From: Candidatus Krumholzibacteriota bacterium
GTDB taxonomy: Bacteria > Krumholzibacteriota > Krumholzibacteriia > LZORAL124-64-63
DNA: 64,000 nucleotides
Direction of reading: 5' to 3'
Assembly (NCBI GenBank): GCA_024277025.1
Contig: JAJRWA010000082.1
Span: 13,169 to 77,168, forward strand
Part shown: positions 6,350 through 62,955 of the stretch, in pieces
Layout: each line of letters opens with the position of its first letter
Position numbering within the stretch: position 1 is the stretch's first letter
The notes under the pieces: model-generated
The model's input: the letters and a program-made list of their open reading frames with translations, nothing else
The model's database searches: none
Told to the model about the DNA's origin: nothing
Program-made: the position numbers and the translations under genes

Positions 6350-6393
6350 AGGCCGGCGGCGGTGCCCAGGAGTCAACCGGGAGCAGACAGCCC

Positions 6394-7203
6394 ATGTCAC
6401 GACAACCGCCCGGTTCGCACCGGCACCAACGGCCGGATGGGCAGGTGCACCACATCTCGTCGATCGCCCACCTCTTTCTGGCCGAGGACGAACTGGCGGC
6501 TGAGAGCAGACGTTGCGGGGCCAGCCAGAGTTTTGCGGTGACCTGCTTCCACGATTCGCGGGTTTCCGCTTTCGTCTGCGGGGCGTTGGCGACGGCCGCC
6601 CGCCAGGTTGCCGGCCGCGGCGGGGGACGTCCAGTCCGGTTGCGGGAGGATGCTGGCCTGGCCTGGTCCGTGCGGTCTTTCCTGGCGGATGACAAACTGG
6701 CCGCTTCCCGGATGGCCCGGGGGCAGCCGGGTCATTGGACCTGGTCGCCCGAGGGTTCCGGTGCCGGGGCGGCGGGTCTTGTCCAGTGGAGCCACCTGGC
6801 GGACAACCGTGATTTCGAGGCCGACGAGATAGAGCCGGACGGCGCTATTATCTGCCTCCTGGCCTGCGAGGTGGGCCAGTTGCCCGCCGGCGTGCGTTTG
6901 GGGCGGCTGTTGGGACAGCTCCGGCCCCGCCGTCTGGAGATTCTGGTCTTTCCTGACGAGTGGGCAACGGAACGGCTGCCGGCCAGTGAAGGCCGAGGGT
7001 GGCGGGGCTTCGGTGGGGGCGGACAGGCGGCACTGCTGGCCCGTTGCCGGGACCTGACCCGGGCCATCGGCGGCTGCTGTCCGGTGACGATCACGACTCT
7101 GCCGGCCAACGGCGCCGGCGAGGCCGGCGCCGGCACAACCTCGATCCTGCACAAACTGGCCCAGCGCCTGCTGGGCGATTTTTCGGTGGACCCCGGCTCC
7201 TGA
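6394..7203 (+). CDS. Hypothetical protein downstream of the ParA-CBM48 gene, a candidate partner or adaptor
   Basis: An ORF in a different frame whose first ATG beyond the parA stop is at 6394. The long track ORF starting at 6271 overlaps parA and is rejected. No recognisable domain. Rich in Ala, Arg and Gly. Confidence 0.4.
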   Translation: MSRQPPGSHRHQRPDGQVHHISSIAHLFLAEDELAAESRRCGASQSFAVTCFHDSRVSAFVCGALATAARQVAGRGGGRPVRLREDAGLAWSVRSFLADDKLAASRMARGQPGHWTWSPEGSGAGAAGLVQWSHLADNRDFEADEIEPDGAIICLLACEVGQLPAGVRLGRLLGQLRPRRLEILVFPDEWATERLPASEGRGWRGFGGGGQAALLARCRDLTRAIGGCCPVTITTLPANGAGEAGAGTTSILHKLAQRLLGDFSVDPGS

Positions 7204-7260
7204 CTCCCCTTAGTCTGACCCGCGAGAGACCGCATCTGTTCCCGATTCGCGGAGGCCCCA

Positions 7261-7847
7261 TGAGATCTGCCACGAACAGCCCATTTCTTGGTCGCCTGTT
7301 CGCTTGCCGCCTGTTCGCTTGCCACCTGTTCGTTTGCTGCCTGCTGCTGGGTGGGCTGGTCGCCAGGGCGCCGTCTGCGGCGGCTGCGGAGCGTACGACC
7401 CTCGGCCGGCCCGGCTATCTGGTGATCGAGGGCGTCCGCGACTCCAGTGCGGTGTTCACCTGGCAGGAGGGCCCGGGGCCCGGTCGCCATTCACTGGTGT
7501 GGCCGGAGGGCACACTCAGCCTGCCGTCCGGGCAGAACCTGGACGACTACGGACGGTTGGATGCGGGAGTGGCCTGCGGAGCGGAATTGTCCGGGGTCGG
7601 CGGCAGTGGCCACCTGGTCTTTAACGACGGACTGTACGTCGTCTCGGAGCCGATTGTCCTGGCCGACGGCACCCTGGAACTTCATGTGTCGGCCGGTGAA
7701 CTGGAAATCCGCAGCAACCAGATTCGCTATCGACGGCCCGTGATCGAGGATCACAGCAGTCAAGCCAACTATATCTTTCTGGCCGGGCTGGTCGTGCTGA
7801 TTGTGGTCCTGATGCGCCGGGTGCGGAAGCGGCTGAGGAAGTCTTGA
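7261..7847 (+). CDS. Hypothetical exported protein with an N-terminal signal peptide and a C-terminal transmembrane anchor
   Basis: MRSATNSPFLGRLFACRLFACHLFVCCLLLGGLVARAPSAAAAE looks like a signal peptide. The C-terminus is hydrophobic (IFLAGLVVLIVVL) followed by basic residues RRVRKRLRK. The signal-peptide region is encoded by a 15-bp tandem repeat. Confidence 0.5.
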
Positions 7848-19084: not shown

Positions 19085-20746
19085 GTGAAGCCAGTGCCTC
19101 CCCTCGGATTCCATGTCCAGCACGCCGGATCGCGGGCCGCGATCGTCGTGGCGCTGTGCCTGGCCGGGCTCGGGGGCTGTGGCGACCGCGGTGGATCGGG
19201 CACGGGGGACCTGGCGCAGGAGACGGCCGGATCGGTGCCGGGGGGGACGGCGGTGATCGCCTTGTCGTCGGAACCGGATGTCCTCAATCCCCTGATTTCC
19301 GCCTCGACGATTGCCGGCCGGGTGATGGCCGAAATACACGAGGGTCTGACCGAAATGGACGACTCGCTGGCGTATGTACCGCGCATCGCCAGCCGCTGGG
19401 AAATCGATCCGGACCGTCGGGCCATCACCTATTTCATGCGGCGGTGGCGCTGGTCGGATGGCCAGCCCCTGACGGCATTTGATGTGGCGGGCTCGTTCGA
19501 CATCTTTGTCGATCCCGTGGTCGCCAGCACGCGGCGCGGGCGGCTGCGCGAGGTCAGCAGCGCCGTGGCCCTGGATTCGTTAACCGTGCGCTACACCTTC
19601 ACGCGCCCCCAGGCCGAGCCTCTGCCGCGCTCATGGCACCACATCCTGCCGCTGCACGTGGTCGGCGACCTGGACCGGGCCGATGTCGCCTCGTGGCCGA
19701 TCAACGACCACCCGCTCTCTTCGGGCCCGTTCCAACTTGAATCCTGGGACCACAACCGCCAGCTGACAATGGTGCGGAATCCGCTGTACCCCGGCACGCC
19801 CGCCTTGCTCGAGCGGGTCGTTTTTCGGATCCTGCCGGAGGCAAGTACGCGGCTGGTGGCGCTTGAAACCGGCGAGGTCGATCTGGTCAATGGCCTGGAC
19901 CCCATCGCGGCCCGCCGCCTGGCTGACGGAGGGGCGGTCCGGATCGTCTCGAATGGCGGCCGCAGTTTCTACTTCGTCAGTTGGAATCTGCGCAACCCGA
20001 TCTTTGCCGATGCCGGGACCCGGCGTGCCCTCGGGCTGGCGTTCGACCGCCAGCGGATGGTGGACAACTTGTTGGAAGGCTATGGCCAACCTGCGATTGG
20101 CCCCATTCCGCCGGTCATGTGGAATCACCATGTCCTGTTGGCGCCGGTGCGGCAGGACCTGGCGCAGGCCGGGGCGCTGTTGGCGGCCGCAGGCTGGCGC
20201 GACGACGACGGTGACGGCGTGCTGGAGCGGGACGGGCTCAGGTTCGAGTTCGAGATGATCACCAAACAGGGCGATCCGGTCCGCGAGAATGGGGCGGTGA
20301 TCCTGCGCAGCAACCTGGCCGGGATCGGCGTGAAGGTCAATCTGCGGGTGATGGAGCTGTCGGCGGGCATCGCCCAGGTCAGGGCCGGGCGTTTTGACGC
20401 CTATTTCGGGCTGCAGAATGCCAACCTGTTCGGGAACCCGGCCGGCAATGTCCGCTCGGACGCGACGGACCAGTTCAACTTCGGTGCCTACGCCAACGCC
20501 GAGGTGGACTCATTGCTGGACGTGGCGACCGGACTGCTGAGCAGGGAGGACGCCCTGCCGGTGTGGCTGCGCCTGCAGGAAGTGTTGGCCGACGACCCGC
20601 CGGCCGCCTACCTGATGTACCCGGACAATCTGGTCGGGGTCAGCCGGCGTCTCCGGAATGTCAAACCGAGCCTTCTGTCCCCCTTCAACAACCTGGCGGA
20701 GTGGTGGGTCCCGGCAAGCGAGCGTATCTACCGTACCGGCAAGTAA
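19085..20746 (+). CDS. ABC transporter substrate-binding protein, family 5 (OppA/DppA/NikA-like), probable lipoprotein
   Basis: SBP_bac_5 features (AVIALSSEPDVLNP ... RIASRWEIDPD ... full-length ~550 aa) and a lipobox-like LAGLGGC. The start is uncertain. An in-frame GTG at 19085 gives a plausible signal peptide. Confidence 0.65.
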   Translation: MKPVPPLGFHVQHAGSRAAIVVALCLAGLGGCGDRGGSGTGDLAQETAGSVPGGTAVIALSSEPDVLNPLISASTIAGRVMAEIHEGLTEMDDSLAYVPRIASRWEIDPDRRAITYFMRRWRWSDGQPLTAFDVAGSFDIFVDPVVASTRRGRLREVSSAVALDSLTVRYTFTRPQAEPLPRSWHHILPLHVVGDLDRADVASWPINDHPLSSGPFQLESWDHNRQLTMVRNPLYPGTPALLERVVFRILPEASTRLVALETGEVDLVNGLDPIAARRLADGGAVRIVSNGGRSFYFVSWNLRNPIFADAGTRRALGLAFDRQRMVDNLLEGYGQPAIGPIPPVMWNHHVLLAPVRQDLAQAGALLAAAGWRDDDGDGVLERDGLRFEFEMITKQGDPVRENGAVILRSNLAGIGVKVNLRVMELSAGIAQVRAGRFDAYFGLQNANLFGNPAGNVRSDATDQFNFGAYANAEVDSLLDVATGLLSREDALPVWLRLQEVLADDPPAAYLMYPDNLVGVSRRLRNVKPSLLSPFNNLAEWWVPASERIYRTGK

Positions 20747-27644: not shown

Positions 27645-28814
27645 TTGGCGGACCACAAGATCATCAGTTCGCTCATGCGGCCTTTCTTTCGCAAAGGAAC
27701 GGAAGCTTCGTTCATGGTGCCGGGTGTCCTGCGCGAGGACTCCCGCATTCTGTGCATCGATCCGGGCGATCTGAGTGACGTCCTGTTTCATATCCCGTTG
27801 CTGACGGCTATCCGGCGCCGGTACCCCGGTTCGAAAATGGATTTCCTCCTGCCGGAGAAACACGCGCCGCTGATTGTGCCGAGCGGGCTGGCGCGGCAGT
27901 GCATCATCTACAAGGACAGGCAACTGAACCCCTGGCGGCCGGATTTCAGTTCGCTGTTGCGCAAACTCGGTGCGGGCAACTACGACGTGGCCCTGGTCAT
28001 GTCGTACCAGCCGCAGCCGCGCCTGGAGTTGGCTGCCCTGGCCAGCGGCGCCGGTTTCCGCTACGGACCCAGCCACAAGGATGCCTGGCCGGCCATCAAC
28101 TTCGAGATGCGTGCTGGCGCCGAGACGCCGGGGTACCGGGGTGATCGTCTGCGGCGGGCCGCCCCGTTCCTGGGCTTCGCACCCGAGGAACTGAACGCGC
28201 GCTGGCCGCTGCCCATGGACAAGGTCCGGCAGATGGCCCAGCAGGTGCACTTCCACAAACCCAATCCCGATCAGATGCTCATCGGCGTGGATCCCGGGGT
28301 CGGCAAGACAGGGCATGCCTTTGCCCTGGAGAACCTGCAGTTCCTGGTGCGTCAGTTGGCCAGTCAGTTCGTCTGCAAGGTGCTGCCGCTGGGCGACCCC
28401 CATGACCGCGAACGTCTGGAGAAGTTCGAGACCAGGCTGTCGGAAGTACCGGTGGGCCTGGAGCGGGAGACGCTGCTGGAGATGATCCTGCTGCTTTCCC
28501 AGTGCGACCTTTTCGTCAGCGGCAATACCGATTTCTTCCATTTTGCGGTGGCCCTCGGCGTGCCCACGATCGGGCTTTTCAGCCAGCGGGACGGCTCGGA
28601 GTGGCTGCCGGGCGACCGGTCGCGCGTGAAGGTGCTGAAGGTGACCAAGGGCGAGAAGGTGGATATCGAGACCCTGATGGAAGCGGTCGAGGCGGTGACC
28701 GAGGGGCGCACCAGTACGGCGTCCACGGCGCTGGCCGTCGAGACGACGCCGGCCGTGACGGTTGACGACGGGCCGGCCGGCCCGGTGGACGATTCCGTCG
28801 CCGGGCGTGAGTAG
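27645..28814 (+). CDS. Glycosyltransferase family 9 (LPS heptosyltransferase-like) with a C-terminal low-complexity tail
   Basis: GT9 fold hallmarks (ILCIDPGDLSDVLFHIPLL ... GVDPGVGKTGHAF ... FVSGNTDFFHFAVALGVPTIGLF). Confidence 0.65.
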   Translation: MADHKIISSLMRPFFRKGTEASFMVPGVLREDSRILCIDPGDLSDVLFHIPLLTAIRRRYPGSKMDFLLPEKHAPLIVPSGLARQCIIYKDRQLNPWRPDFSSLLRKLGAGNYDVALVMSYQPQPRLELAALASGAGFRYGPSHKDAWPAINFEMRAGAETPGYRGDRLRRAAPFLGFAPEELNARWPLPMDKVRQMAQQVHFHKPNPDQMLIGVDPGVGKTGHAFALENLQFLVRQLASQFVCKVLPLGDPHDRERLEKFETRLSEVPVGLERETLLEMILLLSQCDLFVSGNTDFFHFAVALGVPTIGLFSQRDGSEWLPGDRSRVKVLKVTKGEKVDIETLMEAVEAVTEGRTSTASTALAVETTPAVTVDDGPAGPVDDSVAGRE

Positions 28815-28818
28815 CGCC

Positions 28819-29928
28819 GTGCCGACCACGCCGCCTGGCGCGCTGCGCATCCTGCTGCAACTGCCCAACTGGCTGGGCGACGTGATCATGACGACACCCC
28901 TGTTGGCATTTCTGAGCGACGCCTTGTCCACGGGTGAACCGGCCGGCCAGGCGGAGTTGCATCTGGCGGTGCGGCCGGCCTGGGCCCCCCTGTTTGCCGC
29001 CGATCCGCGCGTGACCTCGGTCTTGCCGGTCGAGCGGCGGGGACGTCACGCCGGGGCGGTCGGGATTTGGCGGCAGGGCCGGGATTGGCGGCGTGGCGGC
29101 TTTGATGCGGTGCTGCTGGGGCCGCCGAGTCTGCGGGCGGGTCTGGTCGCGGCGGTATCCGGGATTTCGTGCCGGGCCGGGCACGCCGGCGATGGCCGCG
29201 ACTGGTTGTTGCGGCCGGCCGTGCCCCGGGGGCCACGCGGCAGCCGCCATTTCGGATACGAGATGCTGGAACTGGGTCTGGCCCTGCTGGCCGAACTGTC
29301 GGTGCCGGCCCCGCCGTTGGCGCAGACCGGATTGCCGCATCCCTCCTTGCCGGGGTGTGACGGGATCCGTCCCGCCACGTCGGCCGGCGGCGGCGAACCC
29401 TTGTTGGTCGTGGCGCCCGGGACGACTTATGGCCAGGCCAAGACCTGGCCGCCGGCCCGGGTCGGGGAGTTCATCGAGATGGCCGGCGCCCGGATGAGGG
29501 CGCGGATTGTCCTGCTCGGCGACCGGCAGACGGCAGACTTCGTGGGCGCCCTGCGCCGGGAGTCGCCGCTGGTGTGGGGGGAATCGCTGGCCGAGCCGAG
29601 CCAGGTCGTGGATCTGACCGGCCGAACGGATCTGACGCAGGTCGTGGCCGTCCTGAAAGCCGCGGCGGCCTTTGTCGGCAACGACAGCGGCCTGATGCAT
29701 CTGGCCGGTGCGCTGGGTGTGCCGACCGTGGGTATTTTCGGCTCTTCAAACCCGGAGTGGACCCATCCGCTGGGGCCACGGACCGCGGCCGTGGTGGCCG
29801 CAGGCTTTGACTGCCGGCCGTGCTACCGCAAGACCTGCAATCAGCCCGAATTCTGCCTTGAGACAATTTCCGCCGGTGCGGTTCTGGACCGGGTGCAGTC
29901 GCTCCTGGGAATCGATGGGGGACACTGA
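28819..29928 (+). CDS. Glycosyltransferase family 9 (ADP-heptose:LPS heptosyltransferase, WaaF/WaaC-like)
   Basis: ILLQLPNWLGDVIMTTPLL ... GAVLLGPPSLRAG ... GNDSGLMHLAGALGVPTVGIFGSSNP. The start codon is uncertain, with in-frame GTGs at 28807 and 28819. Confidence 0.7.
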   Translation: MPTTPPGALRILLQLPNWLGDVIMTTPLLAFLSDALSTGEPAGQAELHLAVRPAWAPLFAADPRVTSVLPVERRGRHAGAVGIWRQGRDWRRGGFDAVLLGPPSLRAGLVAAVSGISCRAGHAGDGRDWLLRPAVPRGPRGSRHFGYEMLELGLALLAELSVPAPPLAQTGLPHPSLPGCDGIRPATSAGGGEPLLVVAPGTTYGQAKTWPPARVGEFIEMAGARMRARIVLLGDRQTADFVGALRRESPLVWGESLAEPSQVVDLTGRTDLTQVVAVLKAAAAFVGNDSGLMHLAGALGVPTVGIFGSSNPEWTHPLGPRTAAVVAAGFDCRPCYRKTCNQPEFCLETISAGAVLDRVQSLLGIDGGH

Positions 29929-30548
29929 TGGCCGTCTGGCTGGCAGGCACGGGGCAGGCGGAGGGACCCGCAGGGCCCGTCCTTTTCCTGGACCGCGACG
30001 GTGTGGTGATCCGGGACTGCGACTATCTGGCCGATCCGGCGGCCGTCGAGATTATCGCCGGGGTGGGGGCGGCAATGGTCCGGGCCCGCGCGGCGGGTTT
30101 TCGGATCGTCGGCGTTTCGAACCAGTCGGGGATCGGCCGCGGCTATTTCACGGAAGATGATTTTGGCGCCGTCATGGCTCGCCTGGCGGCTGACCTCGAC
30201 CGGTTCGGTGCCCGCTTCGACGGCTTCTACTACTGTCCGCACGCCCCTGACGCCGGCTGCGCGTGCCGCAAGCCGCTGGCCGGGTTGTTGACCGAAGCGG
30301 CCGCCGATTTCCGGTGGGACCCCAGTCTGTCCTGGCTGGTCGGTGACAAGATGAGCGATCTGGAACTGGGCCGGGCGGCCGGTCTGGGCCTAGCCCTGGT
30401 GCGCACCGGCTACGGCGTCGCAGCCGAGTCCGCGGTGCGAAAGCGCTGGCCGGCTGACCGGCGTCTGCTGGTGGCGGATGATCTGCCGGCGGCGGTGGAC
30501 GCCATCCTGGCCCGCCCGGAGTTCGCCGCGGACGGGAAGTCGTCATGA
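29928..30548 (+). CDS. gmhB: D-glycero-D-manno-heptose-1,7-bisphosphate 7-phosphatase (HAD family)
   Basis: HAD motif I LFLDRDGVV, a GmhB-type zinc-binding CPHAPDAGCACRKP motif and HAD motif III/IV (LVGDKMSDLELG). It is embedded among GT9 genes with 4-nt start/stop overlaps. Confidence 0.8.
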   Translation: MAVWLAGTGQAEGPAGPVLFLDRDGVVIRDCDYLADPAAVEIIAGVGAAMVRARAAGFRIVGVSNQSGIGRGYFTEDDFGAVMARLAADLDRFGARFDGFYYCPHAPDAGCACRKPLAGLLTEAAADFRWDPSLSWLVGDKMSDLELGRAAGLGLALVRTGYGVAAESAVRKRWPADRRLLVADDLPAAVDAILARPEFAADGKSS

Positions 30549-31690
30549 CCTGGCTGCTGGACAAGCGTCCTCTCCGCCGGATACTGCTGACGCGGCTGCG
30601 GTACCTGGGCGATGTTGTGATGACCACGCCGATGCTGACGGTCTTGCGCGCGGGAGATCCTGAAGTCCAACTGGGGTACTTGTGCGAAGCGGCCCACGGC
30701 GCGGCGTTGCAGGGGCATCCGTGGCTGAAAAATCTGCATCTGCTCGGGGCAGGGCGTACGGGCGCGGACGCGCGGGCGCGAGTGCAGGCGGTCCCGACTG
30801 GTTCGGGCCGGGCCCGGGGCACCTGGGGCCTGATCCGGGAATTGCGGGCAGCCCACTACGACCTGGTGGTCGATCTCTTCTTCAATCCGCGCAGCGCCTG
30901 GCTGCTGCGGCTGAGTGGCATCGGGCAGCGCATCGGCGGCGCGACAAGTCTTCGCCGGCACCTCTATACCCACACGGCACTGGCGGCGGACGGCCGGGCC
31001 CGGGCGCCCCGGCTGGCCCAGGTGGCACCCGGTGGCCTGGGCGATCACCTGGCGCGTCTGGCCCCCTTGACCCACGCCGAGACCGGGCTGGATTTCTTGT
31101 CCTGGCTGGTGGAGAACTTCAGTCCCGGCCAGTTGAAGCCCGAACTGGGCAAGGACGACCAGGCGGGCGGCACGCCATACCTGCTGCTGGCCCCGGGCGC
31201 GACGTGGCCGGCCAAGGAGTGGCCGCGCAGTCATTGGCAGGAACTGGTGGGCCGGCTGGTCGCCGAATCCGGTCTGCCCGTGCGCGTTCTGGTGCCGCCT
31301 GGGCGCGAGGAGACGTGGGGGGCGCTTGGCGCCGGGTATGAGCGCGCCGAGGTGGAGGTGTTGCCCCGGTTGCCACTGGTCGCGGTGAAACGGGTCCTGT
31401 CCGCGGCCCGGACCGTAGTGAGCGTCGATGGCGGCGTGATGCACATGGCGGTGGGGCTGGGTGTGCCGACGGTGGGGCTGTTCGGACCGACGGACCCCGC
31501 CACCTGGTTTCCCTACGAAGAGATGGGACCGTACCGGGTACTGGCCCAGGCGCCGCCGTGCTTTCCCTGCGACCGGCACGAGTGCGATGAGTTCATCTGT
31601 TTGCCTGAACTGCCGGCGGACCGGGTGGCGGCCGTGGTGCTGCAATTGTCCCGCGCGGCTGGTCCGGTGGCCGATCGGCAGGGGGAGTGA
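30545..31690 (+). CDS. Glycosyltransferase family 9 (heptosyltransferase)
   Basis: RRILLTRLRYLGDVVMTTPML ... APGATWPAKEWP ... VDGGVMHMAVGLGVPTVGLFGPTDP. Start and stop overlap the neighbouring genes by 4 nt. Confidence 0.7.
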   Translation: MTWLLDKRPLRRILLTRLRYLGDVVMTTPMLTVLRAGDPEVQLGYLCEAAHGAALQGHPWLKNLHLLGAGRTGADARARVQAVPTGSGRARGTWGLIRELRAAHYDLVVDLFFNPRSAWLLRLSGIGQRIGGATSLRRHLYTHTALAADGRARAPRLAQVAPGGLGDHLARLAPLTHAETGLDFLSWLVENFSPGQLKPELGKDDQAGGTPYLLLAPGATWPAKEWPRSHWQELVGRLVAESGLPVRVLVPPGREETWGALGAGYERAEVEVLPRLPLVAVKRVLSAARTVVSVDGGVMHMAVGLGVPTVGLFGPTDPATWFPYEEMGPYRVLAQAPPCFPCDRHECDEFICLPELPADRVAAVVLQLSRAAGPVADRQGE

Positions 31691-32736
31691 TGGCTGTCCG
31701 CGAGTTTCGGCGCATCCTGTTGATCAGGCGCAAGGCCCTGGGCGATGCCCTGGTGACCATGCCGGCGGTGCTGGAAGTCGCCCGCGCGTGGCCCCGCGCC
31801 CGGATTGATCTGGTGATCGATCGTCCCTTTGCCGGGTTGCTGACGGCCTTGGCGCCCGAAGTGCGGGTGCTGTCCTGGCCGCCGCCGCCGGGCCAGTCCT
31901 GGTGGCGGCAACTGCGGCAGGGACAGTACGATCTGGTGGTGGACTGGCTGGGCAATCCGCGCACGGCATTGTGGACAGCAGCCACCGGCGCGGCTGTCCG
32001 GGTGGGCTACGATCTGCCGCGCCGGCGCTGGGCGTACAACGTGAAAGTGCCGCGCAACCGGACCCGTGGACACGATCTGCGGGGATTTGCCGGCGAAGCT
32101 TTCCTGGACCCTCTGCGTGCCCTGGGGGTTGAGCCGGCGCCCTGGCGTGATGGTTTCGCCGCAACCGCCGTCGCCGCGGCCGTGCGGCCGGAGGTCAGTG
32201 CCTGGCTCGAGGGCTGGCTGCACCGGGCCGGGCCACCGCTGGTGGTCATCATGAGCGCGACCTGGCCCGCCAAGAAGTGGCCGGCTGCCCAGGTGCGGGA
32301 TTTACTGGCCGGGTTGCGGGAGAGGGGAATCAATCCGGCCCTGGTGCCAGGTCCTGGTGATCAGTGGCTGCTGGACGAGTTGGCCGGTACCGGGGAAGAG
32401 ATTCAGGTGGCGCCCCAGACCAACCTGCCCGAGCTGGCGCATATCCTGTCTTTCGCGAAGTTGTTCGTGGGTACCGATTGCGGGCCGCGGCACCTGGCGG
32501 CGGCTCTGGGCGTGCCGACGGTGACGGTTTTCGGGCCGACGGATCCCGCCGGATGGAACCCGCCGACTCCCGATCATGTTGCAGTGGGACATCCGGTCTC
32601 GTGCGCGCCCTGCAACCTGACGGAATGTCCGGTGGCTGGTCACCCCTGTCTGGCCGAACTGGAGAGCGGCACGGTCATTGCAAGTGTGCAGCGGATGCTG
32701 GCGAGACTACGAAAGGGAACACCGCGTGCGCAGTAG
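31687..32736 (+). CDS. Glycosyltransferase family 9 (heptosyltransferase)
   Basis: RRILLIRRKALGDALVTMP ... MSATWPAKKWP ... GTDCGPRHLAAALGVPTVTVFGPTDP. Confidence 0.7.
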   Translation: MMAVREFRRILLIRRKALGDALVTMPAVLEVARAWPRARIDLVIDRPFAGLLTALAPEVRVLSWPPPPGQSWWRQLRQGQYDLVVDWLGNPRTALWTAATGAAVRVGYDLPRRRWAYNVKVPRNRTRGHDLRGFAGEAFLDPLRALGVEPAPWRDGFAATAVAAAVRPEVSAWLEGWLHRAGPPLVVIMSATWPAKKWPAAQVRDLLAGLRERGINPALVPGPGDQWLLDELAGTGEEIQVAPQTNLPELAHILSFAKLFVGTDCGPRHLAAALGVPTVTVFGPTDPAGWNPPTPDHVAVGHPVSCAPCNLTECPVAGHPCLAELESGTVIASVQRMLARLRKGTPRAQ

Positions 32737-33577: not shown

Positions 33578-35176
33578 ATGCCCACCTCCGCCAAGGCTTC
33601 GCTGGTGCCGCACTCGCGGTGGTTGCATTCGGTGCGGACCGCTGAAACCGACTTCAGTCTGCCTTTCCTGTTGAGCATGACCGTCGTTGGCGGTGTGCTG
33701 CGCTTGCTGTCATTGACGGGCCAATCGCTGTGGGTGGATGAGATTCTGACCTGGAACGCCATCCGGCCGGGCGGAGATCTGGGCTTCTGGGAGCAGGTGC
33801 GGGACACCATTCAGGGCCCGCTCTATCTGGCGGTCGTCTGGCCGCTGCTGCATATGCAGGACACGGCCCTGATGCTGCGTTTGCCGGCGGCCGTGGCCGG
33901 TGTGCTCGCCGTGCCTTTGTTTGGCTGGCTGGCCTTTCGCCTGCTGGACGGCCGGGCGGCGCGGCTGGCGCTGCTGCTCTTTGCGGTGAATCCGTTTCAT
34001 GTCTGGTACAGCCAGGAAGGCCGGGGATATGCCTTCGTGGTGCTCTTTGCCCTGGTGACGGCCCTGGTCTATGTGGCGATGGTCAGGCGTGGTCCGAGCC
34101 TGGGACTGGCGCTGGGGTTCTCGGTGGCCGGGGCCGCCATGGTCCTCAGTAATTTGTCCGGCGTTTTCGTGCTGCTGGCCATGGGCTTGACCCTGGTGAC
34201 CCTGCATCGGCCCCAGGGACGCCGCGACTGGGCGCTCTGGTTGCTGGCTTTTGGGCTGGCGAGCGCCCTGGTGGCGCCGTGGCTGTTGCGGGCCGCAGGG
34301 ATCTGGGCTGTGGATCGTATCGTACCGGGTGCGGGGACCGGGGTGGCCTTGCGGGGAACCACGACGTTCTCACCGTTGGCCTTGCCCTACGCCTTCTTCA
34401 CTTATTTTTTCGGGTACAGCCTGGGACCCTCCCTGCGTGAACTGCACCGGCCGGATCGTCTGGCGGTTCTGATGAACTACCTGCCTGTGCTGGCGGCCGG
34501 GGCAGCCTTGGTGGGTACGGCACTGCTGGCGGGAGTGATCCGGCCGGACCGCCGGCGCTTGACCTTGATCACCTGGATTGCGGTGCCGCTGCTGCTGGCG
34601 GTTCTGTTGGCGGTGCGCAACGTCAAGCCGTGGAACGCCCGGTACGCGATCGTGGTCTTGCCGTGGCTGCTGGCTTTGGCCGGCACCGGGCTGGCGCGAC
34701 TGGATCGGCGCTGGGGAGCGTTGGTGGCGGTGGCTCTGATCGGTCTGACCCTGTGGTCATTGTGGGGCTATCAGCAGCGGGACAAGTACGCCAAGGCGGA
34801 TATCAGGGGCGCGGCAGCCTGGATTGCCCAGGCCGGGACCAACGATGATACGATCCTGGTGCCGGTGGTTCGCGGGGTCTACCGCTACTATGACGGCGGC
34901 GCGCATCGTTTGGTCGGCGACCCGGGGGCGGCGCCTTTGCCGAACCCGGCGGCGGCCGAGGGCTATCTGCGGGAGAAACTGGCGGGCCTGGATTCGTGCT
35001 GGGTGGTCCTTGCCCGGGAGTGGTATTTTGATCCGCAGGGGTTGCTCATGCCGGCTCTGGCCGCGAGCGGAGAACTGGAACTGGCGGCTCAGTTGCCGGG
35101 AGTGGACATTCTGCTTTGGCGAGCCCAGGCTGAAGAGGCGCCTGCACCACCCTGGGGGACCCGACATGGCTCGTGA
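33578..35176 (+). CDS. ArnT/PMT-like (GT39/GT83-type) polytopic membrane glycosyltransferase
   Basis: About 10 transmembrane segments and an N-terminal loop motif (SLWVDEILTWNAIRPG ... NPFHVWYSQEGRGYAF) typical of the PMT_2/ArnT superfamily. Confidence 0.6.
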   Translation: MPTSAKASLVPHSRWLHSVRTAETDFSLPFLLSMTVVGGVLRLLSLTGQSLWVDEILTWNAIRPGGDLGFWEQVRDTIQGPLYLAVVWPLLHMQDTALMLRLPAAVAGVLAVPLFGWLAFRLLDGRAARLALLLFAVNPFHVWYSQEGRGYAFVVLFALVTALVYVAMVRRGPSLGLALGFSVAGAAMVLSNLSGVFVLLAMGLTLVTLHRPQGRRDWALWLLAFGLASALVAPWLLRAAGIWAVDRIVPGAGTGVALRGTTTFSPLALPYAFFTYFFGYSLGPSLRELHRPDRLAVLMNYLPVLAAGAALVGTALLAGVIRPDRRRLTLITWIAVPLLLAVLLAVRNVKPWNARYAIVVLPWLLALAGTGLARLDRRWGALVAVALIGLTLWSLWGYQQRDKYAKADIRGAAAWIAQAGTNDDTILVPVVRGVYRYYDGGAHRLVGDPGAAPLPNPAAAEGYLREKLAGLDSCWVVLAREWYFDPQGLLMPALAASGELELAAQLPGVDILLWRAQAEEAPAPPWGTRHGS

Positions 35177-35855
35177 GAACTACTATGGATCAGAGAGTGA
35201 ATTTGCCGCCTTTGTCGCCGGCAGCACCGCGTCCGGCCTGTTGCCCTGCGGACCGGGCTATCGCCTGGTCAAGCGCCTGTTCGACGTGGTGGCTTCGGGT
35301 TGCGGTCTCCTGCTGATCCTGCCCTTGTTCCCGTTCATTGTGCTGTTGATCAAACTGGAAACCCGGGGTCCGATCTTTTTCCGGCAGACCCGCGTGGGTT
35401 TGCGGGGACGGCTGTTCCGCTGCTACAAGTTCCGTTCGATGGCCGTGGATGCCGAGGCACGCAAGGAAGAACTGACGTAACTGAATGAAGCCACCGGCGC
35501 CGCCTTCAAGATCAAGGATGATCCGCGCATTACGGGGGTCGGTCGCTTTCTGCGGCGCAGCAGCCTGGACGAGTTCCCGCAACTGTACAACGTGTTGCGG
35601 GGCGAGATGAGCATCGTCGGACCGCGACCGCAGATTCCCAGTGAGGTGGCCGACTACACGGCGGAGCAGGCCACGCGGCTCCTGGTCAAACCCGGTCTGA
35701 CCTGTTTGTGGCAGGTTTCGGGGCGCAGCCATCTGGAATTCGAAGAGTGGATGCGGCTGGACCAGGACTACGTGCGGCAGGCGGGTCTGATGTTCGACGC
35801 CGGCATCCTGGCCCGTACCCTGCCGGCCGTGATTGAACGGAAGGGCGCCTATTGA
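35166..35855 (+). pseudogene. PglC/WbaP-C-type bacterial sugar (phosphoglycosyl) transferase interrupted by an in-frame TAA at 35478-35480
   Basis: The reading frame is continuous from ATG 35166 to TGA 35855 except for the single TAA. Both flanks are homologous to PF02397: upstream [59 protein letters not shown], and downstream [49 protein letters not shown]. This is either a genuine nonsense mutation or a sequence error. Confidence 0.7.
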
Positions 35856-49945: not shown

Positions 49946-50584
49946 ATGGTCCGGGCATTCCTTGGTGGGTCATTCGATCCGGTGCATACCGGGCATGTGG
50001 CCATGGTGGACCATGTCCTGGACAAGGGGCTGGCCGACTTCGTCCACGTCGTGCCCGCCTGGCTGTCTCCCCACAAGCTCAACACCACCGCGGAACCGGC
50101 CCAGCGCCTGGCCATGGCTCGCCTGGCCTTCGGCGAGCGGGCACAGGTGACCGTGGAACCGGTGGAGGTGCAGAGCGGCCGGTCCTGCTTCACCGTCGAT
50201 ACTCTGGCGGCTCTGCAGGCAGCCTATCCGGGCGCGAGTTGGCTGCTCGTGATTGGCGGCGACAATGTGGCGGGTTTTGCCGGCTGGCACGAGGCCCGGC
50301 GCCTGCAGACGCTGGCCCGGGTTGTGGTGTTGGGTCGGGCCGGCGCTGACCTGGAGCAGCCGGCGCTCAGTGCCGCCGGTCTGGATCCCGCACGCTGCCG
50401 GGTCGAGGCCGATTTTCACGCACCGGTGTCATCCACGGCGATCCGTAGTATGCTGGCCAGCGGTCCGGACGCCGCGGCGCTCAGCGCCGCCGGGGTGCCG
50501 GTTGCCGTCGCCCAGTACATAGTCGCCCAGCGGCTCTATCTCCCCGAGCGGAATGGTGAATCCCGTGTCCCTGATCCTGATTGA
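49946..50584 (+). CDS. nadD: Nicotinate-nucleotide adenylyltransferase
   Basis: FLGGSFDPVHTGHV (the (H/T)xGH motif) and a C-terminal SSTAIR motif. Confidence 0.8.
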   Translation: MVRAFLGGSFDPVHTGHVAMVDHVLDKGLADFVHVVPAWLSPHKLNTTAEPAQRLAMARLAFGERAQVTVEPVEVQSGRSCFTVDTLAALQAAYPGASWLLVIGGDNVAGFAGWHEARRLQTLARVVVLGRAGADLEQPALSAAGLDPARCRVEADFHAPVSSTAIRSMLASGPDAAALSAAGVPVAVAQYIVAQRLYLPERNGESRVPDPD

Positions 50585-53387
50585 CGGCGCCGCCCTCTTC
50601 TATCGAGCCCACTATGCTTTCGCCAACCGTCCGCTGACCGCACCCGGCGGTGAAGTGACCAGCGTTGCCTTCGGCTTCTTCAATTCGATCCTGCGGCTGA
50701 TCGAAAAATACGATCCGGAAAAGCTGGCGGTTGTCTTTGACAAGAAGGGCAAGGTTTTTCGCCACGACCTCTATCCGGCCTACAAGGCCAACCGCAAGCC
50801 GATGCCCGAGGAGCTGGCCGCGCAGTTGCCGCGCCTGCGTGAGCTGCTGACGGCCTGGGGCCTGCCGGTCTATGAGCAGGACTACTACGAGGCGGACGAC
50901 CTGATGGCAACGATGGCAAGACGTTCGGCGGGTGTCGTGGACCGGGTGTGGTTCTACACGGGCGACAAGGATTTCATGCAACTGCTGGACGGGCGTGTCG
51001 GCATGCTCAAGCCGGGGCGCAAGGGCGAGGACGTCACGCCGTTTACCGACCAGGACGTCAGGCAGACCTACCAACTGGAGCCGGTCGATCTGATCCAGGT
51101 CTTTGCCCTGGCAGGGGACAAGGCGGACAATATCCCGGGCGCCCCCGGGGTGGGGGACAAGACGGCCCAGAAGCTGGTGCGCGAGTTCGGCAGCCTCGAA
51201 GCCCTCTATGAGGGGCTGGCCGCCAGCAAGCTGACTCCCCGGCTCAAGCGCGTGCTCGGCGAAAGCCGCGAGCAGGTCTTTCTTTCGCGCGACCTGTTCG
51301 TGATCAAGGATGACGTGGAAATGGACCTGGACTGGGAGGGCATGGCGACGGTGCTGCCCAGCGGGCAGCAGGTCAAGGGACTGCTGGCCGAACTCGGCTT
51401 GCGGCGGGTGCTGAGCCTGGCGGAAAAGCTGGAGGCCAGGGGGGGCGCGACTGTCGTGACTCCGGCCGCGGCTGCCGAAGCGGAGCCGGAACCGGCGACC
51501 GAAGCGGATTCCTGGGCTGCCCGCCGGGAAGAGCGGGGATATCGAATTCTGGCCGGCGACGAGGACCTGCGGGCGTGGCTGGCGGCGCTGGATCCGGAGT
51601 CGCCCCTGGCTGTCGACACGGAGACTGATGGCCTGCGGGCGGACCGCTGCCGGCTGGTCGGCGTCTGCCTGGCCGGCTATGACCGACAGGGTGAGCGGTT
51701 GGCGCCGGCCTACGTGCCGGTCCTGTGGCGGGACCCCGATCCCGAGGGTGCCGCCGGGGGCACCCTCTTCCCGCTGGGCCAGGAGCACTCGCGGCTCGCC
51801 GGCGTACAGGCGGTGTTGGCCCCGGCGCTGCAAGGCGGGAACCTGAAGGTGGGCCAGAACCTGAAGTTTGACGAATGGATCCTGGGGCGGCACGAACTGC
51901 CTCTCGGCGGGCCGCGTTTCGCCACGATGCTGGCTTCGTACGTGCTGGATCCGGGCCGCCCGAGCCACGGGCTTGACCAGTTGGTGGCCGAGTTCCTGGA
52001 TCACCGGATGATGCCGTTCAGCGAGCTGTTCGCGGCGGGCGATCGGCAGCAGGATATTCTGGGCGTGGACCCGGACCGCCTGGGCCTGTATGCCGCCGAG
52101 GACGCGGACTACACCCTGCGGCTGTATGAAGTTCTGGCGCCGCAGCTGCAGGAGTCGGGTCTCGAGTCATTGTTCCAGGAAGTGGAAATGCCGGTGGCGG
52201 CGGTGCTGCTGGAGATGGAGCGCAACGGCATCGGGCTGGACCGGGACTTTCTGGCGGAGCTGCGGGCGCGCTTCGAGCTGGAATTGACGCGTCTGCGGGA
52301 GGCCATCATCGAGGCCGCCGGCGAGGACTTCAACATCAACAGTCCCAAGCAGCTGCAGGTCATCCTGTTCGAGAAACTCGGGCTCAGGCCGACCAAGAAG
52401 ACCAGCACGGGCTGGAGCACCGATGTCTCGGTGCTGACGGCCCTGGCGGACGAGCACGAACTGCCGGCACTCATCCTGGAATACCGGCAGATCGCCAAGC
52501 TGCAGAACACGTACGTCGAAACCCTGCCGGAGTTGGTGCATCCGCAGACCGGGCTGATCCACACCTCGTACAACCAGGCGGTGGCCGCCACGGGACGGCT
52601 GTCCAGTTCGTATCCCAACCTGCAGAACATACCAATCCGGACGGAGCTCGGGCGTGAGATCCGGCGGGCCTTTGTGCCGCGGGAGCCCGGCAACGTTTTT
52701 CTGTCGGCGGACTACTCGCAGGTCGAGCTGCGCCTGATGGCTCATCTGGCCGACGACCCCGGCCTGTTGGCGGCTTTTCGGGAGGGGGCCGACGTGCACC
52801 GGCGCACGGCGGCGCTGATCAACGGCGTGGACGAGGCGGCGGTCGATGCCGAGATGCGGTAGCGGGCCAAGGCGATCAACTTCGGCGTGATCTACGGCAT
52901 GGGCGCGCGGGCCCTCGCGCGGCAGATCGGCGTCACGGTGAAGGAGGCGGCGGCCTTCATCGCGAGCTATTTCGAGACCTATCCCGGGGTCAAGACCTTC
53001 ATCGAGGAGACCCGGGAACGGGCCCACCGGGATCACTACGTGGAGACGCTGCTCGGGCGCCGGCGCCTGTTGCCGGAGATCGATTCGGCCAACAACCGTG
53101 TGCGCAGTTTCCAGGAGCGGGTGGCGGTCAACACGCCGATCCAGGGCACGGCCGCCGACCTGATCAAGTTGGCGATGATCGCGATCAGCCGGGAGTTGGC
53201 CGCGAGCAAAGCCAAGGCGCTGCTGCTGCTGCAGGTGCACGATGAACTGGTGCTGGAAGTGCCGAAGGACGAACTGGACGCGACCCGTGAACTGGTGCGC
53301 GCGGGCATGGAAGGGGCCATGGAACTGAAAGTGCCGCTGGTGGTGGATCTGCACGCGGGCGCGAACTGGGCGGAGGCGCACGGATGA
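50553..53387 (+). CDS. polA: DNA polymerase I with a single in-frame TAG (52860-52862) inside polymerase motif B
   Basis: All three Pol I domains are present: 5'-3' exonuclease, 3'-5' exonuclease-like (LAVDTETDGL) and polymerase (motif A LSADYSQVELRLMAHL, motif C LQVHDELVLE). The frame is the same before and after the TAG. The sequence reads ...AAVDAEMR-TAG-RAKAINFGVIYGMGA..., which aligns with the conserved RRxxKxxNFGxxYG motif. Confidence 0.8.
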
Positions 53388-53413: not shown

Positions 53414-54028
53414 ATGACGGTCTGGGCCCTGACCGGGCCCATCGGCGCGGGCAAGTCGGCGGTCAGCGGCATCCTGGCCCGGCAGGGGGCGGCGATCGTC
53501 GATGGTGACCGGCTGGGTCACGAGTTGTTGTCGCGACCCGACATACAGCGAGGCATTGCGGCCGGTATCGGGCCCGAATATGTCGCTGGCGGCGTCGTGG
53601 ACCGGCGCAAACTGGGCGCCCGGGTCTTTGCCGACCCGGCCGCGCTGAACGAATTGAATCGCCTGACCCACGGGCCGCTTGGTACGCTGGCGGCCCAGCG
53701 GCTGGCGGCGTTGGCCGCCGCCGGCGAGCATGAGCTTGCCGTGTTCGAGGCCGCCGTGTATTTTCTGTTGCCGTCACCGCCGCCGGTGGATTTGGTGGTG
53801 ACGGTGACGGCACCAAGGCCGTTACGCATCCAGCGCCTGGTGGACCGCGCCGCCGGGGGCCTGAGCCCGGCCCAGGCCGGAGCCCGGATCGCGGCCCAGG
53901 ACGACCTGGTCGCGCTCTGGTCCCGGGCGGACCAGATCATCGAAAATGACGGAACCCTGGACGAGCTCGAGACCCGCGTCCTGCGCCTGTTGTCTCAACC
54001 CAGACCCGGAAGTGAGAACTCCCCGTGA
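53414..54028 (+). CDS. coaE: Dephospho-CoA kinase
   Basis: P-loop ALTGPIGAGKSAV near the N-terminus, with the usual polA-coaE adjacency. Its stop overlaps the prfB GTG by 4 nt. Confidence 0.75.
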   Translation: MTVWALTGPIGAGKSAVSGILARQGAAIVDGDRLGHELLSRPDIQRGIAAGIGPEYVAGGVVDRRKLGARVFADPAALNELNRLTHGPLGTLAAQRLAALAAAGEHELAVFEAAVYFLLPSPPPVDLVVTVTAPRPLRIQRLVDRAAGGLSPAQAGARIAAQDDLVALWSRADQIIENDGTLDELETRVLRLLSQPRPGSENSP

Positions 54029-55135
54029 AAGAATCGCTTGATCGCATTGCCGCCTGCCTGACTCGACTCGAAGCCCTGAAGGAGGGTCTTTGACTACCCC
54101 GCCCTGCAGGAAGAGCAGAAGCAGTTGGAGGCCTTGCAGGCGGCGCCGGAATTCTGGAACAACCAGGAGGAGGCGACGCGGGTTCTGCGCAAGGTGCAGT
54201 CACTGAAGCAGTGGTTGGTGCCGCTGGCGGCGGCGACCGAGAAGGCCGAAGAACTGCAGTTGATGGTGGAAATGATGCAGGAGGAAGGGGAGGCGGACGA
54301 CAGCGGTGAAATCGCCACGGCGGTGTCCGAGCTCGAGCGGTCCGTCGAGAAGCTCGATTCCCAGTTCCTGCTCAGCGGCGAGGACGACGAGCGCGGTGCC
54401 GTACTGGAGATCCATCCGGGTGCCGGTGGTACCGAGAGCCAGGACTGGGCCCAGATGCTGCTGCGCATGTATACCCGTTTTCTCGAACGCAACGACTGGA
54501 AGAGCAAGACCCTGGACCTGCAGGCCGGCGATGAGGCCGGCATCAAGAGCGCGGTCCTGGAAATCGACGCGCCCTTCGCCTACGGTTACCTGAAGAGCGA
54601 GTCGGGCGTGCACCGTCTGGTGCGCATTTCGCCGTTTGATTCCCAGAGCCGGCGGCACACGTCGTTCGCCTCGGTTTTCGTCTACCCGCTGGTCAACGAC
54701 GACGTCGAAGTCGAGATCGACACCTCGGACCTGCGGATCGACACCTATCGGGCCCAGGGTGCGGGGGGGCAGCACGTCAACAAGACCGACAGCGCCATCC
54801 GGATCACCCACGAGCCGTCCGGGATCGTGGTGCAGTGCCAGAGCGAGCGCAGCCAGCACCGCAACCGGGAAAGCGCCATGACCATGCTGCGGGCCAAGCT
54901 GTACCTGAAGGTGATGGAGGAACGCCAGAAGGAACGCGACGCCATCGAGGCCGAGAAGATGGAGATCGCCTGGGGCAGCCAGATCCGCAGCTATGTCCTG
55001 CAGCCCTACACCAAGGTCAAGGATCACCGGACCGACCACGAGACGGGCAACGCCACGGCGGTGCTTGACGGCGACCTCGACCAGTTCACCGAAGCCTATC
55101 TGCGCTGGATGGGCGCCCGCCGCAAGAACAATTGA
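54025..55135 (+). CDS. prfB: Peptide chain release factor 2, produced by a programmed +1 ribosomal frameshift
   Basis: ORF0 runs from GTG 54025 to an in-frame TGA at 54091. An internal SD-like AAGGAGGG (54079-54086) is followed by the slippery CTT TGA C (54088-54094). The +1 frame continues DYPALQEEQKQLEALQ... into the long RF2 ORF. The junction EGL|DY mirrors E. coli RGYL|DY. RF2 signatures SPF and GGQHVNKTDSAIRITH are present. Confidence 0.9.
54079..54094 (+). promoter_or_regulatory. RF2 autoregulatory +1 frameshift site (internal SD plus CUU UGA C)
   Basis: Directly visible: AAGGAGGGTCTTTGAC. Confidence 0.85.
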
Positions 55136-57939: not shown

Positions 57940-58632
57940 ATGCATTCGTTGTTGGCAGCCAGGAATCTGGACAAGGGTTTTCCGCGGGCCGGCGGTGAGG
58001 TCGCCGTCCTGCAGGGGTGCGACTTCCGGCTCGCAGAGGGTGAAGCCGTCGCGGTCATGGGCGCCAGCGGGGCCGGCAAGAGTACACTGCTGAACATCCT
58101 TGGCGGCTTGGACACGCCGACGGCGGGGCAGGTTCTGTCCAACGGGGCGGAACTGGCATTCGACGACCACAAGGCCATGGCCGAATGGCGCTCCCGCGGT
58201 GTGGGCTTCATCTTCCAGTTTCATTTTCTGCTGCCGGATTTCACGGCGCTGGAGAACCTGTTGTTGCCGGTGCGCACACGTGGCAAGGTTACGGACGCTG
58301 ACCGCCAGCGGGCGCTGGATTTTCTGACGACCATGGAATTGGCGGACCGCAGGGACCATCTGCCCGGCGAACTGAGCGGCGGCGAGCAGCAGCGGGTGGC
58401 GATTGCCCGGGCCTTCATGAATCGACCCCGTATTGTGCTGGCGGATGAGCCCTTTGGCAATCTGGACCACGAAATCGGCCGGCGTCTGGGGGACATGCTG
58501 TTCCAGTTGCGGGCGACCGAACGCACCAGCCTGGTCATTGTGACCCATGATCCGCAGTTGGCGGCGCGGGCTGACCGGACGCTTGTCCTGCAGGACAAGC
58601 GCTTGCTGCCGGCGGAAGGAAGTCTCCGATGA
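57940..58632 (+). CDS. lolD: Lipoprotein-release ABC transporter ATP-binding protein
   Basis: Walker A GASGAGKST, an ABC signature LSGGEQQRVAIARA and Walker B IVLADEP. It immediately follows the LolC/E-like permease. Confidence 0.75.
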   Translation: MHSLLAARNLDKGFPRAGGEVAVLQGCDFRLAEGEAVAVMGASGAGKSTLLNILGGLDTPTAGQVLSNGAELAFDDHKAMAEWRSRGVGFIFQFHFLLPDFTALENLLLPVRTRGKVTDADRQRALDFLTTMELADRRDHLPGELSGGEQQRVAIARAFMNRPRIVLADEPFGNLDHEIGRRLGDMLFQLRATERTSLVIVTHDPQLAARADRTLVLQDKRLLPAEGSLR

Positions 58633-59177
58633 TTTGTCACATGTGCGGCCAGCGGGAAGGCACGATCCACCTGCTGGAGGTCAACGACGGTCTGCAAAAG
58701 AGCGTCTGGCTTTGCAGTACCTGTGCCTCGGGGCGCGCCGATATGTCGCTGGCCGATGTGCTCGGTGGTGGGCACACTCGCGAAACCGCCGGGGAGTCGG
58801 CGTCACTGGCGTCTTTCCTGGGCCAGGTGCAGGACAGCGAGGGCCAGATCAGGCAGGTGGCGGCCTGTCCGGGCTGCGGCTACGAGATCAAGACGTTCCA
58901 GGACACCAACCGGCTCGGCTGTTCAGCCTGCTACGTTCACTTCCGGGCCCAGATTCTGCCCATTCTGGCGCACTATCATCGGCACGCCTCCCATCTGGGC
59001 AAGGTGCCGCAGCAGGCGGGCGGAGCGGCCAGCCAGCAGGGTGAGATCACCCGGCTGCGGGTGGCGCTGGAGAAGGCCATCCAGAGCGAGAACTACGAGG
59101 AGGCCGCTCGCTTGCGGGACGTGATGCACGGACTGCTGGACCGGGGTGAAGGCGGCGAGGGACCGGTGGCCACATGA
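58629..59177 (+). CDS. mcsA: McsA-like protein (Zn-finger plus UVR-motif activator of protein arginine kinase)
   Basis: CxxC pairs (ICHMCGQ...CSTCAS; CPGCGYE...CSACY) and a C-terminal UvrB/UvrC-type motif (ENYEEAARLRDVM). It is followed directly by mcsB and clpC. Confidence 0.65.
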   Translation: MICHMCGQREGTIHLLEVNDGLQKSVWLCSTCASGRADMSLADVLGGGHTRETAGESASLASFLGQVQDSEGQIRQVAACPGCGYEIKTFQDTNRLGCSACYVHFRAQILPILAHYHRHASHLGKVPQQAGGAASQQGEITRLRVALEKAIQSENYEEAARLRDVMHGLLDRGEGGEGPVAT

Positions 59178-60232
59178 GTGATTTTTTCAGCGATTGCGCC
59201 AGTCGGGACCCCCACTGGCTGGACGAGGCCGGGCCCAGTTCGGACATTGCCCTGTCCACGCGGGCGCGTCTGGCCCGCAACCTGCCGGAGGTGCCATTTC
59301 CTCACCACGGATCGGAACTGGAACTGCAGACCGTGTCGGCTGACCTGTCGCGAAGGGTCGGGCGCCTGGCGGCGTTTGCCGGCGGCTGGCAGGTCGACGG
59401 CCAGGGGCTGGCGGCAGTCCGGCGGCGGGTACTGCAGGAGAAGCTCCTGGTTTCAGCGCGTTTTGGCAGTCAGCCGCGGCATCAGGCCCTGGTGGTTGCC
59501 GCCGATCTGGCGCGGGTGGCCTTGATCAACGAAGAAGACCATTTGCGGCTGCAGGCGTTTCGGGCCGGCTTCGATCCGGAAGGTACCCTGGCCGATGTGA
59601 TGGCCGTCGATGAGCAAATGGAAGCCGAAATGGAGGCGGCGTTCAGTCCGGAGTGGGGGTATCTGACGGCCAGCCCGACCAACCTGGGAACCGGTCTGCG
59701 GGTCAGCGCCCTGCTGCATCTGCCCGGGCTGGTCCTGGTTGGCGAGATCGAGCGCGTGCTGAATGCCCTGCGGCAGTTGCAGTTTTCGGTACGCGGGCTG
59801 TTTGGCGAAGGCAGTGCGGTACGCGGCGGCTTGTTCCAGATCAGCAACCTGATCACGCTGGGGCGGGACGAGCAGGAAATCACGGCCGACTTCCGCGTGC
59901 ACGTGGGGAAGATCATCACCTACGAGCGATCGGCCCGCAACCAGCTCTACGGCCGCGATCACCTGGGGGTTGAGGACATGGTCCAGCGCAGCCGCGCGAT
60001 CCTGGCCCACGCGCAGGTGATCACGGCGCAGGAGGCCTTTGACTGTCTGTCCAACGTTCGTCTCGGCGAGGCGCTGGGCCTGTTGCCTGTTTCAGGCCCC
60101 GGGGGCCTGAATCATCTGACTGTGCACCAGCAGGGAGCCCATCTGGAACTGGCGGCCGGTCGCCAGCTGTCAGGAAGGGAAAAGGGGGCCGCCCGGGCCG
60201 CCTTGCTGCGGGAATTTTTTGCCGCCGGCTAG
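59174..60232 (+). CDS. mcsB: Protein arginine kinase McsB (ATP:guanido phosphotransferase family)
   Basis: Phosphagen-kinase catalytic-domain signature (GYLTASPTNLGTGLRVSALLHLPGL), at the length of McsB. Confidence 0.75.
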   Translation: MSDFFSDCASRDPHWLDEAGPSSDIALSTRARLARNLPEVPFPHHGSELELQTVSADLSRRVGRLAAFAGGWQVDGQGLAAVRRRVLQEKLLVSARFGSQPRHQALVVAADLARVALINEEDHLRLQAFRAGFDPEGTLADVMAVDEQMEAEMEAAFSPEWGYLTASPTNLGTGLRVSALLHLPGLVLVGEIERVLNALRQLQFSVRGLFGEGSAVRGGLFQISNLITLGRDEQEITADFRVHVGKIITYERSARNQLYGRDHLGVEDMVQRSRAILAHAQVITAQEAFDCLSNVRLGEALGLLPVSGPGGLNHLTVHQQGAHLELAAGRQLSGREKGAARAALLREFFAAG

Positions 60233-60483
60233 GGCCGAACCGGCAATCGGCGGTAAAGTATTCACCAGTCTGCCCGATTAGCGGTGGTACGGAGCAATTG
60301 GCTCCGGCCCGGTTTTTGCGTTCAATTCCCGTCAGCTCAAGGCATGAGTAGCGTTTGCGCGCTGGCTCCAGTATATTTTTGCCAGACACCTGGTCATGGA
60401 AATGGAGACTCCAGACCACAAGACCGTGTCGGGATTCCGTCCGGATCCGCGACCGGGATCACTGCGAATGGAGGCGCGTCGGC

Positions 60484-62955
<2,472 letters not shown>

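Follow-up and report, generated by a model that had tools for sequence, protein, structure and literature searches.

The polA gene of an uncultured Krumholzibacteriota bacterium raises a simple question. Its reading frame is continuous from start to end apart from one TAG codon, and this codon may be a property of the organism or a property of the sequence that was deposited for it. We address the question within the window (the whole stretch of DNA that was analysed, 64,000 nucleotides of contig JAJRWA010000082.1) and by comparison with related loci, homologous proteins, and known cases of in-frame stops.

The polA reading frame and its amber codon

The gene and the landmarks around its stop are as follows.

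50553..53387, plus strand: polA (DNA polymerase I), a conceptual frame of 944 codons with one internal TAG, from translation and Pfam
52710..52733, plus strand: motif A (DYSQVELR), residue 720; 5' of the stop and intact
52857..52898, plus strand: motif B (O-helix), R-stop-RAKAINFGVIYG; invariant Arg769 and Lys773 intact
52860..52862, plus strand: in-frame TAG, polA codon 770; TCG (Ser) in L001, L002, and L014, the closest relatives
53232..53246, plus strand: motif C (QVHDE), residue 894; 3' of the stop and intact

Translation places the TAG (52860-52862) in frame with both the ATG at 50553 and the terminal TGA at 53385-53387. The conceptual 944-codon product, with the stop masked, was searched against Pfam. 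The 5' nuclease domains are complete (5_3_exonuc_N, residues 7-173, E 4e-49; 5_3_exonuc, residues 176-265), as is the 3'-5' exonuclease domain (DNA_pol_A_exo1, residues 330-533, profile 1-173/173), and a single unbroken DNA_pol_A match spans codon 770 (residues 565-941, profile 2-381/381, E 3e-160). The frame holds what is expected of the PolA family, namely both exonuclease domains and a polymerase domain in which motifs A, B, and C are all present, and departs from it only in being interrupted by the TAG at codon 770. The preliminary description of this gene as otherwise intact is thus borne out, one polymerase match running straight over the stop.

The same interruption is present in public data. 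A protein of 769 aa (P0001), a singleton cluster from a 95,102-bp NCBI contig, is 100% identical to the window product; the deposited assembly therefore has the same polA truncation, and the TAG is not peculiar to the supplied window. The nearest Krumholzibacteriota PolA proteins are 79-80% identical to that of the window.

The site of the stop in relatives

The TAG was at first thought to replace a conserved arginine of motif B. Alignment places it one codon later: the invariant arginine is the preceding codon and is retained. The residue 4 before the motif-B lysine is Arg in 239/239 homologous proteins, and the window keeps both residues, as Arg769 (52857-52859) and Lys773 (52869-52871). From alignment to the textbook motif, we take this arginine to be the equivalent of E. 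coli R754. The position occupied by the stop is itself variable among the 239 homologues (Ser 136, Arg 43, Gly 18, Ala 14, Tyr 12, Asn 9, Asp 6, His 1). At the nucleotide level, the equivalents of codon 770 in 51 related loci are AGC in 18, TCG in 14, GGC in 4, CGG in 3, and a few others.

A stop codon occurs at this site in none of the 51 related loci and in none of the 239 homologous proteins. The comparison of polA across sister genomes, proposed earlier as a check, accordingly finds the site open in every locus, and this shows that selection to keep polA intact is strong. The closest relatives (L001, L002, and L014) have ATGCG[C/T] TCG CG[G/A]GCC, against ATGCGG TAG CGGGCC in the window. 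Most parsimoniously, the TAG would have arisen from TCG (Ser) through one C>A change at 52861.

Other sequences of the same species were sought. A scan of JGI metagenomes in which the codon was treated as a wildcard returned 0 matches. In protein searches, the next-best full-length PolA after P0001 is 80% identical, and the best other match to a 269-aa segment centred on the stop is 87% identical and a fragment. There is no second sequence of the species in the collections searched.

Absence of decay downstream of the stop

The window polA has the profile of an intact gene on both sides of its stop. Its ratio of downstream to upstream amino-acid divergence is 0.82, against 0.81±0.12 in 160 pairs of intact relatives. 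At invariant columns, defined as those identical in all 42 other sequences, it has 0 private changes at 40 columns downstream and 0 at 49 columns upstream. GC3 in the part of polA that lies 3' of the stop is 0.89, matching the highest in the window. By these measures of its sequence, the window polA is not decaying and is otherwise fully under purifying selection.

A second interrupted gene in the window

A second in-frame stop had been reported at 35478, in a PglC-like gene, and it is present.

35166..35855, plus strand: PglC-like gene of 229 codons for a polyprenyl-phosphate sugar transferase (Bac_transf), interrupted by a TAA
35478..35480, plus strand: in-frame TAA at codon 105 of this gene; the residue is His in 114 relatives, Asp in 3, Ala in 2, and Ser in 1

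The TAA lies inside a single Bac_transf domain (residues 36-223, profile 1-178/179; Pfam). Nearly all of the 120 nearest relatives are exactly 229 aa long, and the window gene has 0 private changes at 62 invariant columns 3' of the TAA. The codon at this site in the two nearest relatives is CAT (His) in L058 and TCG (Ser) in L057, and TAA is at least two nucleotide steps from either. In polA, the stop is an isolated one-step substitution (TCG>TAG) with no other sign of decay, as expected of an assembly error; for the PglC-like TAA, the codons of the two nearest relatives are both two steps away. The suggestion that the two stops form one pattern is therefore only weakly upheld: a common mutational route is not demonstrable, because the second is a different codon whose counterparts in L058 and L057 are CAT and TCG.

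Pfam and NCBIfam scans of the remaining genes found no further split or frameshifted gene in the window. An unannotated interval (6350-7699) was considered as a third lesion and set aside; frame-specific GC3 and translations give two separate hypothetical genes there, with no frameshift.

Lone stops in other genomes of the clade

Lone stops are found in other MAGs of the clade as well. In the lon gene of L058 (GCA_030590035.1, JAUUZH010000003.1), an in-frame TGA at 2243-2245 stands where the window and L057 have TGC (Cys), and the gene caller gives two same-frame genes of 428 and 357 aa. Although this TGA does fall on a Cys codon, the position is a non-redox one and TGC>TGA is a one-step change, and selenocysteine was set aside. 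In the polA gene of L017 (DAOPJF010000204.1, NODE_16632), a TAG at 3521-3523 falls on the conserved Trp of 'DLDWEG', which is TGG in the window; the contig name gives a coverage of 4.25x. Two Nanopore-derived MAGs from MFD (L050 and L011) have multiple frame disruptions in their polA, lysS, and lolD alignments; these look like the indel errors typical of long-read assemblies, unlike the clean substitution-type stops of the window.

We scanned for nonsense codons by aligning window proteins to all fetched relative loci, which amounts to about 213,000 aligned residues. Clean nonsense codons number about 2 in the ~213,000 aligned residues of the relatives and 2 in the window itself, a suggestive hint of poorer assembly in a comparison that is post hoc, the window having been flagged for its stops. 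A shared mutational signature was also considered: the changes in the window polA (TCG>TAG) and in L058 lon (TGC>TGA) are both C>A, and that in L017 polA is G>A. It was not retained, given the few cases and the large share of one-step nonsense routes in GC-rich genes that C>A represents. Going by these alignments, lone stops in housekeeping genes are a sporadic property of the MAGs of this clade, conserved at no site; their occurrence at unrelated sites fits a technical or sporadic origin.

Artefact or real allele

The choice had earlier been narrowed to two options, an error or a genuine nonsense allele of the E. coli polA1 type, and we consider these the right two. Under either, the phenomenon is of a known kind: a spurious internal-stop pseudogene or a natural counterpart of polA1.

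By a slender balance of probability, we favour the view that the polA TAG is an artefact (a sequencing, assembly, or consensus error) or an unfixed variant in the MAG consensus. Our inference is that the base at 52861 is either an error or a variant that has not gone to fixation. An error, or a rare variant picked up by the assembler, would have put the TAG into the consensus, and the codon would not be a fixed property of the organism. The cell's Pol I would then be normal and full-length, position 770 being occupied by Ser or a comparable small residue.

Several observations lead us to this preference. The TCG of the relatives is one C>A step from TAG; polA has no downstream relaxation, and its motifs A, B, and C are intact; the PglC-like TAA is equally isolated, with no other gene of the window split or frameshifted; and lone nonsense codons also occur in L058 lon and L017 polA. 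Other considerations count against it. Short-read consensus errors are uncommon at good coverage. Since the PglC-like TAA is at least two steps from CAT or TCG, a single-base error at that site would presuppose an intermediate codon, so far unseen, in this species. And a real allele is biologically possible, given that E. coli survives with nonsense alleles of polA.

Published work also favours the artefact reading: many pseudogenes with internal stops in public assemblies are assembly artefacts, tied to coverage, platform, and assembler (Cooley & Wright 2024, PMC11017572). The likeness to our case is close. Such spurious pseudogenes are isolated stops in intact conserved genes, with more than one in a short stretch, and comparable lone stops occur here in other MAGs of the clade, one of them on a contig of 4.25x coverage. 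The difference lies in the proof: the published artefacts were proven by reassembly from reads (PMC11017572), whereas the assignment in the window is by inference only.

That the TAG is a genuine nonsense allele of very recent origin, comparable to E. coli polA1 but arisen in nature, is a serious possibility, although we consider it unlikely. The predicted product would have 769 residues; it would contain the 5' nuclease, the 3'-5' exonuclease domain, and motif A, and would be without the O-helix and motif C. Polymerase activity would be lost and the essential flap- and primer-removing nuclease kept, with other polymerases filling the gaps. The stop is, after all, present in the deposited assembly, and by Pfam the 5' nuclease domain is complete and translatable ahead of the amber codon. 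That E. coli tolerates a truncation which keeps this domain, as the preliminary description held, is well founded: polA1 (W342amber) is viable, and growth needs no more of the protein than the 5' nuclease domain (PMC6379578). A second nonsense codon in a conserved gene of the same 64 kb could reflect a clonal lineage under relaxed selection or a mutator lineage. What tells against a real allele is that neither polA nor the PglC-like gene has decayed downstream of its stop, so that the allele would have to be extremely young, and that the site is open in the 51 related loci and 239 homologous proteins. Moreover, two conserved single-copy genes would have to be knocked out at the same time, both at majority frequency, within a single wild population, which is unlikely a priori.

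The comparison with polA1 itself is instructive. In the De Lucia & Cairns mutant, as in the window, an amber codon interrupts polA and leaves the N-terminal 5'-3' nuclease intact; the mutant is viable, the nuclease rather than the polymerase being the critical activity (PMC6379578). The two differ in extent: polA1 stops at codon 342, ahead of the 3'-5' exonuclease and polymerase domains, whereas the window polA stops at codon 770, in motif B, and its product would extend through the exonuclease domain to about the middle of the polymerase domain. They differ also in standing, polA1 being an experimentally verified laboratory allele and the window TAG an unverified MAG consensus sequence.

Read-through, recoding, and reassignment

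Any account in which the TAG is translated has to contend with the use of this codon elsewhere in the window. The 46 plus-strand genes terminate in TGA (29), TAG (14), or TAA (3). Full-length NCBIfam profiles end at the TAG or within a few residues of it in lexA (202/203), lon (794/795), efp (184/184), lysS (488/488), lolC/E (410/411), and mcsB (347/347), and the TAG stops of pilT and accC lie near the ends of their profiles. The earlier statement that TAG is a normal stop here is therefore sound: it ends 14 of the 46 genes, and full-length profiles end with it. Within the window, only one internal TAG is found among about 49 genes.

The machinery of termination also appears standard. The prfB gene, which encodes RF2, has an in-frame stop of its own.

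54025-55135: prfB (RF2), a short way downstream of polA, matched to the last residue by TIGR00020; frameshift site at 54080-54094

Its ORF0 begins at GTG 54025 and runs for 22 codons to AGGAGG, a 3-nt spacer (ggt), and CTT TGA C; the TGA occupies 54091-54093, and the main frame resumes at GAC 54092. Judged by these signals, this is a canonical autoregulatory programmed +1 frameshift, a legitimate in-frame stop unrelated to the polA TAG, and it indicates standard release-factor biology. The two cases are alike in that an in-frame stop lies inside an essential conserved gene. They differ in that the prfB site (54088-54094) has its defining signals, AGGAGG, the 3-nt spacer, and CTT TGA C, and is conserved across the family, whereas the polA TAG lacks signals of this kind as well as structure, and is conserved in no relative.

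A real TAG that is nevertheless translated is improbable. In this reading, a suppressor tRNA (for example a supD-like tRNA-Ser carrying the anticodon CUA) would decode it, or termination at TAG-C would leak, and the cell would make a nuclease-only product and some full-length Pol I. The site is a Ser position that tolerates S/R/G/A/Y/N/D/H, so nearly any inserted residue would leave an active enzyme, and the intact downstream sequence is what continued translation predicts. The base after the polA TAG is C, and TAG-C is a weaker termination context in E. coli. Against this stand the 14 window genes that naturally end in TAG, four of them also with C after the stop; the lack of any tRNA gene in the 64-kb window and in 58 related loci; and the fact that the site is a stop in no relative. 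There is also no stimulatory RNA structure around the TAG (fold z = -0.87 against shuffled sequence) and no match to an Rfam family in the window. Finally, the PglC-like lesion is a TAA, unreadable by an amber suppressor. An extended form of this idea is very doubtful: a genuine TAG, partly suppressed by a tRNA-Ser(CUA)-type suppressor or through leaky TAG-C, would yield a 769-residue nuclease/exonuclease protein alongside full-length Pol I, and the scattered lone stops in polA, lon, and the PglC-like gene would mark a nonsense-tolerant, efficiently suppressing lineage.

Three related candidates were rejected on specific grounds. Programmed recoding at the polA TAG lacks a conserved stop in relatives, a structure, and an Rfam match. 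Selenocysteine is rejected in that the codon is TAG rather than TGA and the site is Ser rather than Cys. A two-piece polymerase restarting at GTG 52887 would begin inside motif B, beyond its essential Arg and Lys residues, and the gene is split at this point in no relative.

Reassignment or dual coding of TAG as a sense codon, through pyrrolysine or another change of code, is scarcely credible: its sole support is the in-frame TAG within an otherwise intact essential-type gene, and TAG ends lexA, lon, efp, lysS, lolC/E, and mcsB at their natural C-termini, occurs internally only once, and falls on an ordinary variable Ser site that has no link to Pyl-containing enzyme families and carries TCG, AGC, and other sense codons in relatives. 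We thus agree with the earlier view that codon reassignment is unlikely.

Other features of the window

Several further loci were noted. At 14144-18991 lies a gene for a secreted protein of 1,615 aa that combines a Peptidase_C25 (gingipain-like) domain with FG-GAP repeats and has a FlgD_ig-like domain at its C terminus; the next genes, in the same frame, encode an SBP_bac_5 solute-binding protein and a matrixin-like metalloprotease. Read-through at these same-frame junctions (TAA 18989-18991 and 20744-20746) was considered and rejected, both being ordinary gene ends.

At 27645-32736, four genes for family-9 (heptosyltransferase-like) glycosyltransferases are interleaved with a HAD-like hydrolase; this cluster is probably an LPS-core or envelope glycan locus. 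On its 3' side are DUF3108, a PMT_2-like membrane protein, and the PglC-like gene, in an order that is syntenic in L057 and L058. At 58629-62955, an mcsA-mcsB-clpC operon (protein arginine kinase and Clp ATPase) is present in this FCB-group lineage; the operon is best known from Firmicutes.

Implications

If the polA TAG is an artefact, it is a flag on MAG quality: a pair of internal stops within 64 kb suggests that consensus errors are more frequent than usual, and polA and the PglC-like gene will be miscalled as pseudogenes by annotation pipelines. The biological weight of the finding is small, and there is no evidence for an altered genetic code. If the TAG is real, it would be a natural polA1-like allele in an uncultured phylum, a modest curiosity, and it would mean that a Pol I without polymerase activity can rise to high frequency in the wild.
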